64,000 bases of DNA from a virus (taxonomy: Duplodnaviria; Caudoviricetes): IMG/VR virus record IMGVR_UViG_3300032038_000003, positions 146,315 through 210,314 of that record. One strand, written 5' to 3'. The notes below the pieces were generated by a model. That model did not search any database. It had not been told where the DNA came from and saw only the letters and a program-made list of their open reading frames with translations. A program made the translations under genes and the position numbers. Of this stretch, positions 20,030 through 64,000 are shown piece by piece; the stretch's first letter is position 1, and every line of letters starts with the position of its first letter.

Positions 20030-20635
20030 TTATTTTTTATTATTTTTAATAGCTTCTTCTCTTCGTTTTATCTTGATCATGTCGTCAAGTTCATTGGCTT
20101 TTTCGTCAGAGATTACTTCTAGTTCGATGACATGTTCATAACCAGCTTTCGCATGAGAGTTACCACCCATCTTTTTATATGGAAGATAAATACTATCTAA
20201 TGTAGCTCTTTCCTTTAAGGTGATAAATCCACGTTCTGTTATTTTATCTGTCATATAGACGATTTTATCATGAGCCATTCCGCTGAGGGTATCACATACA
20301 TTATTTTGATTATCAAAGATTTGTTGAAGAGTTTTTTCAACACGTTCGTCATTGTCTTTAAGTTGATCAAACGTTTTAAGTAATTGCTGAAAATCTTCAG
20401 AATGTACTTTTATCATTCCTTGAATATTTTTTTCATGCTTCTCAAAACGTTCAGCTCCAGTTTTTTCACGAGCGTCTAATCCTTCTTGCATTTCTTTATG
20501 TAATTGTTCAAATCGTTCATCGATCTTTTTATCTTCTTTAGTGTCTTTTCTTTGTATTAAGAACTGAAGAAAAGAGAACAACGCTCCTGAGCCAAGAATC
20601 GTTAAAAGAATCTGTAAAGCATTAGTTTGATCCAT
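20030..20635 (-). CDS. Membrane-anchored coiled-coil protein (holin-associated type)
   Basis: N-terminal TM helix, coiled coil, RGFIT..YLPYKKMGGNSH motif. Confidence 0.5.
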   Translation of the reverse strand: MDQTNALQILLTILGSGALFSFLQFLIQRKDTKEDKKIDERFEQLHKEMQEGLDAREKTGAERFEKHEKNIQGMIKVHSEDFQQLLKTFDQLKDNDERVEKTLQQIFDNQNNVCDTLSGMAHDKIVYMTDKITERGFITLKERATLDSIYLPYKKMGGNSHAKAGYEHVIELEVISDEKANELDDMIKIKRREEAIKNNKK

Positions 20636-21840
20636 TAATTATCTTCTCCTTCTTTCATACCTTCTCCGCCACCTTCCATGCCTTCTCCACTACCCCACAT
20701 AACTTGTGCGAAGTGATTTAAAGTACTTACGAGAATACCCGCAAGCTGGCTCTCTGAGATAAACTTGTTTGGTGATAAATTATCTCCGTTTGCGTCGGTA
20801 GGATCGTAAGAACTTGCATCTGGACCATCTACAGCAGCAATAGCATCTAATACCATCTGCTCAAATTCAGAGGCTGTCTTTTCTGACTGATTGACTTCTA
20901 CTCTGATTTGTTTTGTGTGACCAGTAGAATCAGCAGAATCATTTACTACAGTTGTAACTGTAGTATCTGATGTACTGCCAGAATATAAATTAATTAAACT
21001 ATGAAGGTTAACAAATACCCATTCATCGTTGCCATCATCGCTTTTAATACCAGTTTGACAGAAAAATACGAGTCCAATATCGCCAGCATGGTCGTTTGTA
21101 GAAATTGTAGCTGTTGCAGTTATAGGATTATGTGTATCTGGATCTTCTCCGACTGTAAAAGTAATTTTTCCAGCTGTAATATCAGCAGCTGTTAAAGTAA
21201 CGGTTTTAACATCTTTAAAGAACGAAATACTTAAAATTGTTTTGCTATTCACAACAGCGTTAACTAATGTTGAAACAGCAGCCGATGTCATTAAATTAGT
21301 ATCTGTTCCAGTAAATGTTTCGTCCAGAGAAGCATCGTCTGAGTGAATTGCTTGAGATGCAACATAATTTGTCATATAAGTCGTAAAGATACTTAATGAC
21401 AATTCTTGTGGAATTGAGCTGGCATTTGTTACCCATATAGAACCAGTTTTTGCTGTATGAGTAACTGGTGTTGCTTGTCCATCTGTAATTGTACAATCAG
21501 CTGTCACAAAATAGAAACTGTTAGGCTTTAAAACGTCAGCAGTGATATTACTAGAAATCATATTGAATTTACTAGCATCGCCACCGAATAATGGAGTATC
21601 ACCAAGATAGCCCACGCCACCTTTGCCAAAAAGGTAAAAAGTATATGGATTGTGCCGATGCGTGGTTGAATCTGCTAAACTATCATATATGGCTTTACAG
21701 GCTGCTTCGGTAGCTCCTGTCAGTATTCGAAATTGAAATTTAGCCATTTTGAATACCTCCTTTTTATTTTTCGATACAAATAATTTGTTATCAAATGTTG
21801 TAAGAATTTTTGAGTCGGAGGTTACTATAATTTTGTTCAT
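20635..21840 (-). CDS. Virion structural protein; second in-frame start at 21747
   Basis: 401-aa ORF with AGGAGG RBS and late-promoter motif upstream; internal AAGGAGGT before MAKF. Confidence 0.55.
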   Translation of the reverse strand: MNKIIVTSDSKILTTFDNKLFVSKNKKEVFKMAKFQFRILTGATEAACKAIYDSLADSTTHRHNPYTFYLFGKGGVGYLGDTPLFGGDASKFNMISSNITADVLKPNSFYFVTADCTITDGQATPVTHTAKTGSIWVTNASSIPQELSLSIFTTYMTNYVASQAIHSDDASLDETFTGTDTNLMTSAAVSTLVNAVVNSKTILSISFFKDVKTVTLTAADITAGKITFTVGEDPDTHNPITATATISTNDHAGDIGLVFFCQTGIKSDDGNDEWVFVNLHSLINLYSGSTSDTTVTTVVNDSADSTGHTKQIRVEVNQSEKTASEFEQMVLDAIAAVDGPDASSYDPTDANGDNLSPNKFISESQLAGILVSTLNHFAQVMWGSGEGMEGGGEGMKEGEDN

Positions 21841-60191: not shown

Positions 60192-60557
60192 TTATCCTAC
60201 GGTAAATCCACCACGATTTCTATAACCAGACTCAGGCTGCTTACCATAACGAATTTTATTTTTCATTTTTTGATATACATTTTTATTGGAAGTATTAGTA
60301 TGACCGCTTAGAATTGTTCTTCCATAAACATCATAGCCAGATTGTGCCATTCTGTATTGGAGATTAACATCACCAGATGTTAGAGAATCAAACGAAGCCC
60401 TATTATATTGAGAATATTTGTTCTTGGCAGTTTCAGTTTCGATACGAATTTGTTTAGCAAGTTCTGCTTTGACATCTCTATCTTGTAGGATCACGTTTAT
60501 AATGTATTGTGCTGTTGCTCTATCAAGACCTAATCCACCTATCATGTTATATTCCAC
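60192..60557 (-). CDS. Hypothetical protein
   Basis: 121-aa ORF, coupled to its neighbours. Confidence 0.5.
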   Translation of the reverse strand: MEYNMIGGLGLDRATAQYIINVILQDRDVKAELAKQIRIETETAKNKYSQYNRASFDSLTSGDVNLQYRMAQSGYDVYGRTILSGHTNTSNKNVYQKMKNKIRYGKQPESGYRNRGGFTVG

Positions 60558-60915
60558 TCCATTTATCTAATGTATCGGATAACATATTTGCTAACGTATC
60601 GTATATATTCGTAGTCTGTTCATCTGTAAAAGAAATTCCTCTATCAAGCATATTTAAGTTTTTCATATTTTGAGCAGAATTTGCTCTTTTCCATATTTTT
60701 GTTGCTTTTTGCATTTTGTCTTCTCCAAAAAGCTCTATACCTTCTTCCCATGCATTGTTTTTATATAATACATCTTCCATTGAGCCAAAGATATATTTAC
60801 TTGCATTTGGATGACTAATATTTTTAAGTGCTTGACTAGATGCTTTTTTGCTAAAATTTTTTACACCGTTTTGATATTGCTCTAAAAAGAATTTCCCTAT
60901 CTGTTTTGTCTGCAT
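60547..60915 (-). CDS. Hypothetical protein
   Basis: 122-aa ORF with GGAG RBS. Confidence 0.5.
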   Translation of the reverse strand: MQTKQIGKFFLEQYQNGVKNFSKKASSQALKNISHPNASKYIFGSMEDVLYKNNAWEEGIELFGEDKMQKATKIWKRANSAQNMKNLNMLDRGISFTDEQTTNIYDTLANMLSDTLDKWSGI

Positions 60916-61190
60916 AATTGCTCTCCTTTGTTTATTTTAACAGCACATGCTGGACAACATATTCCAGGTTCTTCCTTTCTTCGAATATAATAAGTTGATT
61001 TGCAATTAGGACATACCACTGCTTTGTCCTTTCTCATATCCTTATTATACGTAGGAATGTTATATGCTTTTCTTATTTTTTGTACAGATACTCTGTTGTA
61101 CTCAATGATCGCAGCAATCTCTGCATCACGAAGACCTTCTTCTTGAGATAATCTTCTTACCTCATTTACAATTATTGGGCTTGTTTTCAT
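60897..61190 (-). CDS. HTH plus Zn-ribbon DNA-binding protein (candidate late regulator)
   Basis: GLRDAEIAAIIEYNRVSVQKIRK HTH; CPNC..CCPAC. Confidence 0.65.
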   Translation of the reverse strand: MKTSPIIVNEVRRLSQEEGLRDAEIAAIIEYNRVSVQKIRKAYNIPTYNKDMRKDKAVVCPNCKSTYYIRRKEEPGICCPACAVKINKGEQLCRQNR

Positions 61191-61240
61191 AATGCTATCT
61201 CCTTATACATAAAATGTAGCTTATTTTTACTTTTTAATTG

Positions 61241-61269
61241 ATTATAACCAATCAAGAGTATTTTCGCAA
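61241..61269 (-). promoter_or_regulatory. Sigma70/SigA-type promoter
   Basis: TTGCGA-17 nt-TATAAT on the minus strand, upstream of the HTH gene. Confidence 0.65.
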
Positions 61270-61279
61270 CATCTTATAC

Positions 61280-61313
61280 AAAAAAGTAGGCTAAGCATCT
61301 GCACTTAGCCTAC
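61280..61313 (-). terminator. Intrinsic terminator
   Basis: gtaggctaag-N8-cttagcctac followed by T6 on the minus strand. Confidence 0.8.
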
Positions 61314-61460
61314 CCTCTTGGAAAGGAGATCAGCCAAAGTAGCAAGACTGATGCGAATAGTAGTTTTAGTCCTATCCCAATATGGATATCATGAAAGTAT
61401 GATAATCGGGTTTAAATTTATTTATAAGAAAGGAGGTCACATGGAAACCTATTCTCATAG
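61280..61460 (-). ncRNA. Candidate ~180-nt sRNA with two anti-SD motifs
   Basis: Promoter-like motif at 61461-61486, terminator at 61280, several hairpins, ACCUCCUUUC and CUCCUUUCC motifs, no convincing ORF. Confidence 0.4.
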
Positions 61461-61522
61461 CTTTATTATATACAAGAAATAAGAATAAAGCAATTTTAAA
61501 TCTTAAACCCAATGTGAAATTC

Positions 61523-61711
61523 TTATTCTTCTGATTTTGTTAGATCATGATGAAAGAGATAGTCTTTAATTTCATCATATGAGTAGTCGGTTTTATATTT
61601 AGCATAAACAGTAGAATAAGCTTGCAGAATGTTCATCTGCTTTTTCCCATACATCAAATCGTAAACAAGTTGAGCAGTTTCTTGTATGGTTAATTCTGTG
61701 TTCTTTTTCAT
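61523..61711 (-). CDS. Hypothetical protein (62 aa)
   Basis: AAGGAGGTG RBS. Confidence 0.6.
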   Translation of the reverse strand: MKKNTELTIQETAQLVYDLMYGKKQMNILQAYSTVYAKYKTDYSYDEIKDYLFHHDLTKSEE

Positions 61712-62258
61712 ATAAACACCTCCTTACAATTTATAATATTACAAATTAAAATGCCAAAATGCTATCTCTAAATTTCCCAAGGACATAGAAGAAAAAACGC
61801 CGCCCATTGTAGATCATTTCTGTATACGAATACTATAATTAATTTTCCAGATATAGGATTAATTTTTATATATATATTTTTTGGGCGAAGCCCAAAAATT
61901 TCGCAATTTTCAAATATATTCTACCCCACCCCCTTCCCCCTTAACAGTATAATACGGCTCCCTTGGGAGCAACGTCTTTAGACTGTTTCCCCGTAAGAAT
62001 ATAAGAGAATGTCATCTTATTTGATCAGTTAAGACGTTCTTTATCTGGTCTTATATAAAAGTGTAGTGTTAAGCTACATTTTGCTCTTATATATCTAAAT
62101 ATAGATATATTTTTTGAAGCAACCACGTTTATATATTTTCAGTGCTTCTTTAGTTCGAAACCCTACCCCCTTACACAGAAAGAAAAGAATTCTTTTCAGT
62201 GCATCCAAGGGTAGAAAACATTATTGCACCTATGCGTCAAATAGGAGAAGGAGACACT

Positions 62259-62765
62259 ATGTTAAAGAGCATTATCATCGCAACACTTGGAGTAGCAGTA
62301 GTAGCAACAGTAGTTGAAGCTGTCAGAGAGATGAAGGCAGTGGGAGCTAAGAAAGAGGACTTCATTACCCATACAGAGATCGTCAACGGTACATATATGG
62401 GTGAGCGTAAGACATGGAATGTAAACGGAGTCAGTGTAATAGGAGTATATTCTCCTATCACAGTAGCTGTATCTAATTCACTGTACGCATCAGCTAACTA
62501 TGACGCATATGGCAATGCGGTCATGGTATATGACAAGAACTTTACAGAGCTGACAGAGGAAGAACAGTACGCAGTAGCATGTCACGAAGCTGGTCATCTG
62601 TACTATAAGCATGATTGGCGTGTGCGTAAGCTTGAGAATGAGCTACAGGCAGATGCATATGCAGTGGCAATCGTAGGAAAGAGTACTATGCTCTCTACAC
62701 TCAATAAGATCCTTGCTCGTAAGAGAAGAGATAAAGAACTGGTAGCACGTATCAATGCTATCTAA
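62259..62765 (+). CDS. Membrane-anchored zinc metallopeptidase (M48/HtpX-like HExxH)
   Basis: LTEEEQYAVACHEAGH..ELQADAYA; N-terminal TM; start reassigned to the ATG after GGAGAAGGAG. Confidence 0.75.
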   Translation: MLKSIIIATLGVAVVATVVEAVREMKAVGAKKEDFITHTEIVNGTYMGERKTWNVNGVSVIGVYSPITVAVSNSLYASANYDAYGNAVMVYDKNFTELTEEEQYAVACHEAGHLYYKHDWRVRKLENELQADAYAVAIVGKSTMLSTLNKILARKRRDKELVARINAI

Positions 62766-62777
62766 TACAACTGAATA

Positions 62778-62804
62778 GACCTAAGCATGTCATTAAACTG
62801 CTTA
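62778..62804 (+). ncRNA. Compact H-type pseudoknot RNA motif
   Basis: GAC/GTC stem; loop TAAGCA pairs with downstream TGCTTA; TAAAC linker. Confidence 0.5.
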
Positions 62805-62857
62805 TACTATTAACCCTATATTATGGTGAACCCTACCTAGTGGGAGAAGGAGACATT

Positions 62858-63262
62858 ATGTTTAAGTTTTTCAATGCACAGGCAACTAACAACACAAACA
62901 GCAACAAGGAGGATAAGACAATGACAAGAAAAGAAAGATGGATGGCAAACATCCACAAGGGCCAGGATCTTGGCTGTAAGGCGGCTCACAAGACTGGTTA
63001 TGGTCTTGGCTATGCTACTACTACTGTTAAGGAAGAAGTCAGCTATGCAGCTCGTAAGGTTGCAAAGACCGTTTCTGAGACCAGAGTAGCACAGGAAGTA
63101 CGTGATGGTTACTATGATGGTAAGAACGATGCTGGATACGCTTTTGCACAGAGATGCATCAAACGTGAGGAAAAGGCTCGTGAGAAGGCTAATGCAAAGG
63201 CTGCTGAGGCTGCTGTAGAGGAGCTTATGGACGAGTTCGAGGATGCTCTTGATGGAGAGTGA
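62858..63262 (+). CDS. Hypothetical early protein (alternative start at 62921)
   Basis: GGAGAAGGAG RBS; second AAGGAGG before MTRK. Confidence 0.6.
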   Translation: MFKFFNAQATNNTNSNKEDKTMTRKERWMANIHKGQDLGCKAAHKTGYGLGYATTTVKEEVSYAARKVAKTVSETRVAQEVRDGYYDGKNDAGYAFAQRCIKREEKAREKANAKAAEAAVEELMDEFEDALDGE

Positions 63263-63267
63263 TGCTA

Positions 63268-63334
63268 GTCGAAACCCCCTTTATATAAGGGGGTCTATGG
63301 GAGATGACCTACCCATACTGATGATGACAGGTCA
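63268..63334 (+). ncRNA. Hammerhead ribozyme, type II with pseudoknot
   Basis: GAAA 63271-74, stem III, GUC cleavage triplet ending 63295, stem I, CUGAUGA 63318-24, stem II GTC/GAC, loop TGACCT pairs with 3' AGGTCA. Confidence 0.88.
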
Positions 63335-63445
63335 ATATCGCACAACGTAGGCAGTAGCGACCCTACACAAATAAGGACCTAGACTCACTAGGATAGAACT
63401 ATTAATTTGCACAACCCTATGAAGAATAGGGAGAAGGAGACTAAC

Positions 63446-64000
63446 ATGGCTAAAGAGTTAACAAAGATGAGCGAGAGAGAGATTTTCGACAGAATGAATG
63501 CACTTGCACACAAATACGATCCGTTCATACAGTACATTGACGACTACAAGCAGTTTAAAACTGCTGAAATTAAGAACAAGGAAGCCAGTGAAGAATGGGA
63601 TACTATCTGCACATATATTGGTGTAGAGAATGCAAGTATCCGTACATATGCAGAGGATATTGATTGCATCAAGGAGAACTTAGGATATCTTTTTGCAGAG
63701 TCAAAAATGTTTAGTAAGAATAAGGAGGATAAGGATATGATGAACATGACAGTTAAGGAACTTAAGGCAGTTGCAAAGGAAGTAGGAGTAAAGGGATACT
63801 CTAAGATGAACAAGGCTGATCTGGTAGCAGCTATCCAGTTCTTCACCAATGAAGAGCGTAAGGAGTCTGAGGCAGTAGTAGCTCCTGTTATCGAGGAGCC
63901 TGTAGTTGAGGAGCCTGTAGTGGAAACAGTAGTAGAGGAAAAGGAAAATAAGGAGGTTTCTATGAAAGAGAAGTACATGGATGCAAAGTGGGATAAGTTG
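63446..64000 (+). CDS. Early protein containing a Rho N-terminal-like (HeH) nucleic-acid-binding domain (runs off the window)
   Basis: Not in the ORF track; ATG 63446 after GGAGAAGGAG; MTVKELKAVAKEVGVKGYSKMNKADLVAAI at ~63746-63835. Confidence 0.75.
   Translation, partial: MAKELTKMSEREIFDRMNALAHKYDPFIQYIDDYKQFKTAEIKNKEASEEWDTICTYIGVENASIRTYAEDIDCIKENLGYLFAESKMFSKNKEDKDMMNMTVKELKAVAKEVGVKGYSKMNKADLVAAIQFFTNEERKESEAVVAPVIEEPVVEEPVVETVVEEKENKEVSMKEKYMDAKWDKL

Follow-up and report, generated by a model that had tools for sequence, protein, structure and literature searches.

The window, as we call the whole stretch of DNA analyzed here, is the final 64 kb of a 210,314-bp IMG/VR virus record rated 100% complete by CheckV. 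The ends of the record overlap by 166-208 nt (window 63835-64000 against genome positions 1-208), and the two copies of the overlap differ by one 42-nt tandem-repeat unit (EEPVV repeats) inside a Rho_N-domain gene. The overlapping ends indicate that the "linear" record is a circular or permuted assembly with heterogeneous repeat number. Genes between about 80 and 208 kb of the record, including those for terminase, portal and capsid, lie on the minus strand. A plus-strand block begins near window 62100 and continues across the record end (~80 kb), with genes for UvrD and SNF2 helicases, Pol III alpha, an SbcCD-like nuclease, a primase and a YonO-like polymerase. The hammerhead ribozyme motif described below lies between the second and third genes of this block, about 1.2 kb from its start. 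The original prediction had placed a hammerhead between cistrons of an early region; the intercistronic spacer and the surrounding replication genes of the plus-strand block agree with it, while the label "early" derives from gene content only.

The gene upstream of the spacer encodes a protein of 134 amino acids that matches no Pfam or PHROG model, and a search of IMG/VR with it found no relatives. The gene downstream encodes about 304 amino acids and runs over the record end into the record start; as expected, it carries a Rho_N domain (PF07498, E 2.7e-10, residues 100-130). The 12-mer GGAGAAGGAGAC, a ribosome-binding motif, occurs in identical form before three plus-strand genes, at 62244-55, 62843-54 and 63430-41, always 3-4 nt from the start codon. 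This shared motif marks the ATG codons at 62259, 62858 and 63446 as the true starts, rather than those of longer GTG or TTG frames. Repeats in the leader of the downstream gene had also been proposed, a claim that did not survive: the 110-nt leader occurs once in the genome, and all that recurs is the 12-13-nt ribosome-binding motif. Ahead of the first plus-strand gene lies a non-coding stretch (62056-62223) that holds a direct repeat, TTTTCAGTGC, twice, together with a GTTCGAAACCC motif. It has no Rfam match, and it is conserved at 76-86% identity in related contigs (positions 4738-4880 in L010, introduced below).

Several other features of the genome were recorded. The YonO-like single-subunit RNA polymerase (904 aa, genome 3147-5858) matches the RdRP model PF05183 at E 5e-20, has an N-terminal Rho_N domain, and has distant relatives in Bacillus phage 0305phi8-36 and in Enterocloster phages. 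A ROOL RNA (RF03087, 234 bits) adjoins a cluster of tRNA genes at genome 13593-14332, outside the window; L010 likewise encodes one (20421-21109, 230 bits). Just upstream of the ROOL RNA, genome 13375-13435 shows a D-arm-like stretch fused to a T-arm (GUGAGUUCAAGUCUCAC), lacking an anticodon arm, which neither ARAGORN nor the Rfam tRNA model called as a tRNA.

The spacer element was detected by the Rfam model for type II hammerheads, RF02276 (Hammerhead_II), whose match covers the full model (1-66) and reaches 40.4 bits, above the gathering score of 37. The E-value is 9.1e-5 for the 64-kb window, 7.2e-8 per genome, and 5e-6 for the 3.5-kb stretch at window 60500-64000. No other Rfam model reaches its gathering score in the window. 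The unconstrained minimum free energy fold contains stems III and I (z = -2.3). Table 1 lists the parts of the element together with its neighbors.

Table 1. Coordinates of the hammerhead, its parts and the flanking features (window positions)
Feature	Position	Strand	Details
Upstream gene, 134 aa	62858-63262	+	Stop TGA 63260-63262; GGAGAAGGAGAC at 62843-62854
Upstream stop codon TGA	63260-63262	+	Followed by 5 nt (63263-63267) before G63268
Type II hammerhead, whole Rfam match	63267-63336	+	RF02276, 40.4 bits
Stem II, 5' strand GUC	63268-63270	+	Pairs with GAC 63326-63328; C63270-G63326 is the C11.1-G10.1 pair
Core GAAA (G12, A13, A14, A15.1)	63271-63274	+	Invariant in 51/51 sequences; G12-A-A14 is GAA 63271-63273
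Stem III hairpin	63274-63294	+	63274-63281 with 63288-63294, 8 bp including A15.1-U16.1; loop UAUAUA
Cleavage triplet GUC	63293-63295	+	A63274 pairs with U63294
C17	63295	+	Predicted cut between C63295 and U63296, from the GUC position against the Rfam and R1 consensus
Stem I hairpin	63296-63317	+	UAUGGG 63296-63301 with CCCAUA 63312-63317, 6 bp; 10-nt loop I
Core CUGAUGA (C3-A9)	63318-63324	+	Followed by one extra U, 63325, ahead of G10.1
Stem II, 3' strand GAC, and pseudoknot tail AGGUCA	63326-63328 and 63329-63334	+	
Pseudoknot UGACCU/AGGUCA	63305-63310 (loop I) with 63329-63334 (tail)	+	6 bp
Leader, ~110 nt	63337-63445	+	Hairpins 63347-63351/63362-63366 and 63378-63382/63388-63392; ribosome-binding 12-mer 63430-63441
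Downstream gene, ~304 aa	63446-64000	+	Continues over the record end into the record start

The conserved core is canonical, reading C3-U-G-A-N-G-A9 on one side and G12-A-A14 on the other, and both the A15.1-U16.1 pair and an NUH cleavage triplet are present. Stems I and III are closed by loops and the 5' and 3' ends lie in stem II, which defines the type II topology. One departure from the RF02276 consensus is the inserted U63325, which stands between A9 and G10.1 and leaves G63326 and C63270 able to pair. Judged by its sequence, the spacer element of this ~210-kb phage is a real, textbook-type type II hammerhead ribozyme. The original prediction of a complete pseudoknotted type II hammerhead starting 5 nt past a stop codon is upheld by the Rfam match above cut-off, by a match to the subfamily model R1 described below, and by direct reading of the sequence, in which each core element was found at the position it had been assigned.

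An RNA-based early-transcript processing system had been suggested as well, and a scan for more ribozymes proposed. Neither a genome search with RF02276 nor Rfam at gathering scores found another ribozyme in all 210 kb of the record, and no further hammerhead emerged from a permissive Rfam scan of window 60500-64000 or from R1. With one ribozyme in 210 kb, the suggested system is not supported, and the hammerhead is not a general processing mechanism for the genome. Its single copy also rules out production of circular or spliced RNA by paired ribozymes in this genome.

The 17-mer CTGATGATGACAGGTCA, which spans the core, the extra U, the 3' strand of stem II and the tail, has 65 exact matches at 57 IMG/VR loci, and 61 of the 65 belong to complete hammerheads built like that of the window. 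Sequences gathered through this 17-mer gave alignment A1, composed of 51 distinct hammerheads, the window's among them. Standard pairs fill 93.6% of its paired cells, compared with 20-50% in slid controls. Both sides have changed at 13 pairs (193 cells), a level reached in 0 of 500 shuffles; these compensatory changes affect all six pairs of stem I and seven of the eight pairs of stem III. That stem II and the tail do not vary in A1 is due solely to the search pattern, which fixed them.

The covariance model R1, built from A1, scores the window hammerhead at 82.2 bits, a value that is not independent, unlike the Rfam score, since the window sequence is one of the 51 training rows. R1 returned 85 matches in 697 kb, including extra members with different tails and stem II sequences. 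Among these further members, stem II occurs as GCC/GGC and AUC/GAU, and loop and tail form cognate pairs such as UGGUCU/AGACCA, UGGCU/AGCCA, UGGU/ACCA and GCCU/AGGC. In the pseudoknot, loop and tail covary over 10 tail classes. The longest Watson-Crick helix that a loop can form averages 5.2 bp with its own tail and 2.4 bp with tails of other classes, a difference that vanishes (4.8 vs 4.8 bp) when G-U pairs are allowed. The window hammerhead has the consensus lengths of this subfamily (stem I 6 bp, loop I 10 nt, stem II 3 bp, tail 6 nt). The extra U is found in most of the ~80 family members, whose stems still covary; it is optional, being present in about half and missing from about half of the members not selected through the 17-mer, and the two forms are mixed within single phage arrays. 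Perreault et al. 2011 (PMC3088659) report no test of an insertion between A9 and G10.1, nor is the window sequence among the constructs tested in the supplements of that paper. Going by its frequency in the family alone, the extra U would be tolerated by the core.

Arrays of 3-5 copies within 1-2 kb were found by R1 on six contigs (L029, L012, L050, L042, L058 and L065). Three regions from uncultivated phages (L029:1501-3129, L012:7484-8596 and L050:7157-8807) each hold 4-5 hammerheads, one per intercistronic gap. MAG contigs with subfamily members come mostly from Clostridia. One member resides in a cultured phage, Oceanotoga phage vB_OteS-UFV02 (OR420712.1, ~1029-1094; L073:979-1044), where it lies unannotated between two hypothetical coding sequences and offers a potential experimental system. 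The subfamily, recognizable as AGUCGAAA ... CUGAUGA-U-GAC-AGGUCA, is well populated in phages and simple to search for.

Members of the family occupy a regular position relative to genes. In 70 of the 79 members with an upstream ORF, the 5' end of the hammerhead falls between -2 and +11 nt from the upstream stop codon, and an upstream TAG or TAA often provides the opening bases of AGUC. Of 77 members, 43 have the next start codon 5-28 nt downstream, and the others have it at a distance of 54-250 nt. The window hammerhead, with gaps of 4-5 nt upstream and 109 nt downstream, conforms to this placement and belongs to the long-leader group. No plus-strand terminator-like site was found between window 62259 and 63446, and neither the stem III hairpin nor the stem I hairpin is followed by a U-run.

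Close relatives of the locus were compared across the spacer. When the conserved leader downstream of the ribozyme was used as a query, three metagenome contigs, L069, L070 and L071, were found to have a hammerhead in the equivalent spacer (81-83 bits with R1). Outside loop III these hammerheads are identical to that of the window, while their flanks are 78-86% identical; sequences this similar to one another cannot show covariation. The minimum free energy fold of the window contains a hairpin that would mask the core, GAUG (63320-23) with UAUC (63336-39), and this candidate was rejected because UAUC is absent from L069 and L071, so that the pairing is not conserved. The closest long relative is L010, the only fragment found in a search with the YonO-like polymerase, whose polymerase is 89% identical to that of the window. 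Homologs of the upstream gene precede the equivalent slot in all four contigs. L010 has no hammerhead, despite the homologous upstream gene and the shared leader, which shows that the hammerhead is dispensable for this phage lineage.

Homology to the relatives ends at 63388 or 63407, just past the second hairpin of the leader, and the N-terminal part of the downstream gene differs in each. Positions 63341-63392 are conserved in all five related contigs, whatever lies downstream and regardless of which element lies upstream. The two leader hairpins, of 5 bp each, read GUAGG/CCUAC and CCUAG/CUAGG (counterpart at L010:6110-6165), and the second reads CUAGG/CCUAG in three relatives.

In L010, the segment syntenic to window 63263-63340 (L010:6066-6107) carries instead of the hammerhead a 42-nt minihelix that resembles the acceptor stem and T-arm of a tRNA. 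It consists of a 7-bp acceptor-like helix, a 9-nt bulge, and a 7-bp arm with the canonical T-loop GUUCGAUUC; in order, its parts are ACACCAT, the bulge, GAGGGGG, UUCGAUU, CCCCCUC and AUGGUGU. It was not called as a tRNA by ARAGORN. As a host tRNA 3' end or an attP core it was also rejected, with 0 exact matches in 185,579 genomes (one per species), and within IMG/VR it occurs in its own contig only.

From these results we propose that the element is a working hammerhead that cuts its own polycistronic plus-strand transcript between cistrons, a reading in which identity, cleavage and processing are probable jointly. It draws on the Rfam match, the conservation among relatives, the covariation across the family, the placement next to stop codons, and the absence of a terminator-like site between 62259 and 63446. 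We infer from the sequence that the two cistrons are co-transcribed and that cleavage takes place in vivo, and likewise the direction of any effect on expression. Once transcribed, the tail at 63329-34 would pair with loop I at 63305-10, and the resulting pseudoknot would bring stem I alongside stem II and close the catalytic core formed by CUGAUGA and GAAA. The 2'-OH of C63295 would then attack its own 3' phosphate. Because the cut falls 33 nt past the stop codon, the upstream message would retain its stop and terminate in a 2',3'-cyclic phosphate at the base of the 8-bp stem III hairpin. The downstream message would open with a 5'-OH at U63296, the first base of the stem I hairpin and pseudoknot, and continue through the ~110-nt leader into the Rho_N-domain gene; such an end, also part of the original prediction, is a predicted consequence of established hammerhead chemistry.

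Two cistrons would in this way become separate molecules, each with a terminal hairpin, and their lifetimes and translation would be uncoupled. It is the type II topology that would close the new 3' end with the stem III hairpin and the new 5' end with the stem I hairpin and its pseudoknot, which hints at why this permutation suits the separation of cistrons. A hammerhead that starts at a stop codon would have its stem II and GAAA covered by the terminating ribosome. Folding therefore probably has to precede ribosome termination at the stop or alternate with it, and the placement makes this interplay of ribosome and ribozyme testable.

An active ribozyme could also act in the opposite sense, lowering expression of the Rho_N-domain gene by giving its RNA a 5'-OH that marks it for decay by 5' exonucleases. 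There is precedent in the glmS ribozyme of Bacillus, where a 5'-OH end can invite decay by RNase J1 in Firmicutes, and a Firmicute host is probable here, given the MAG contigs from Clostridia, the polymerase relatives in Bacillus and Enterocloster phages, and the ROOL RNA; moreover, the part that varies among relatives is the downstream region. However, the 3' product would open with a 6-bp hairpin, held in place by a pseudoknot, and would have no single-stranded 5' overhang, and fully paired 5' ends usually impede 5' exonucleases. Many family members place a strong ribosome-binding site and start codon within 5-28 nt, and some phage arrays give each successive gene a hammerhead-derived 5' end, both of which fit maturation of the message better than its destruction. 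We regard decay as an unlikely purpose of the cut. The patchy distribution of the element, present in the window, L069, L070 and L071 and missing from L010, and its location right at a mosaic junction, past which the sequence has been swapped, would also suit a small mobile or recombining RNA module of no benefit to the phage, kept only through recent acquisition. This account is distinctly improbable, since four phages that differ by 14-22% in the flanks share the same hammerhead sequence apart from loop III, since extensive compensatory change across the family shows selection on the fold, and since a neutral insert would not take so regular a position relative to stop codons.

Least probable of all, and hardly credible, is that the two hairpins serve merely as a structural stop, a stabilizer or weak terminator, in an element whose core is inactivated by the U inserted after A9. 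The insertion relative to the Rfam consensus is the one feature that speaks for it. Every invariant base of the core is nevertheless intact, the extra U is shared by most of the ~80 members with covarying stems and alternates with the U-less form inside arrays, and the hairpins lack the U-runs noted above. Processing of the transcript by self-cleavage accordingly stays the preferred reading.

The comparison with L010 raises a further, tentative idea, to which we give rather little weight: that the spacer after the stop of the upstream gene is an exchangeable slot for RNA punctuation, filled by the hammerhead in four phages and by the minihelix in L010, in each case ahead of the conserved leader with its two hairpins. 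It is plausible that the minihelix, known from a single contig, is a substrate for RNase P or RNase Z. The swap, seen in that one contig, hints at interchangeable processing signals. Should both elements provide the leader with the same processed 5' end, intercistronic hammerheads of phages would be equivalent in function to tRNA-like processing signals, and nature would have performed a swap experiment on the long-unresolved role of these ribozymes. With hammerhead and minihelix naturally exchanged among close relatives, the processing hypothesis can be tested simply by comparison.

By 2011 this class of ribozyme had already been published, together with its pseudoknot, its occurrence in phages and its proposed part in processing (PMC3088659). 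In that work, Perreault et al. described natural type II hammerheads with a very short stem II and a pseudoknot between loop I and the tail, which cleave fast and need the pseudoknot for activity. They found them to be frequent in prophages, in multiple copies flanking genes, and proposed that they cut long phage transcripts into gene-length messages. A 2019 review still described the biological role in bacteria and phages as undefined (PMC6765202), in accord with the original prediction. Alone, the window hammerhead matters little, being one more instance of an Rfam-detectable class in its commonest setting.

It shares with the RF02276 hammerheads of that study the core, the topology, the very short stem II, the pseudoknot and an intergenic location beside phage genes. 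It differs in its extra U between A9 and G10.1, in a pseudoknot of UGACCU/AGGUCA where the Rfam consensus is UGG./.CCA-like, in occurring as one copy rather than several flanking genes, and in being followed by a structured leader of ~110 nt instead of an immediate ribosome-binding site. The arrays found here (L029, L012, L050, L042, L058, L065) have the same core, extra U, GAC stem II, AGGUCA tail and start at the stop codon, with 3-5 copies per 1-2 kb and a ribosome-binding site at once after each, in contrast to the single copy and long leader of the window. Olzog et al. 2021 (PMC8782182) showed that three type II hammerheads near phage-like genes of Desulfovibrio vulgaris cleave in vivo, with minimal fragments 29-32 nt and 39 nt long. 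They too match RF02276, and minimal fragments from the window hammerhead would be 29 and 39 nt; the host lineage differs, and cleavage was measured there and is predicted from sequence here.

HHphage, located among early genes of haloviruses HF1 and HF2, stands 13 nt ahead of the start codon of an ORF, and mapping placed a transcript 5' end no more than 3 nt from its cleavage site (PMC3088659). The window hammerhead resembles it as a hammerhead of an early-gene region upstream of an ORF, "early" resting here on gene content; unlike it, HHphage belongs to an archaeal virus and has a variant core with insertions near C3. With tRNA punctuation, in which substrates of RNase P and RNase Z separate messages, the likeness is a functional analogy only, drawn through the L010 minihelix and its GUUCGAUUC T-loop.
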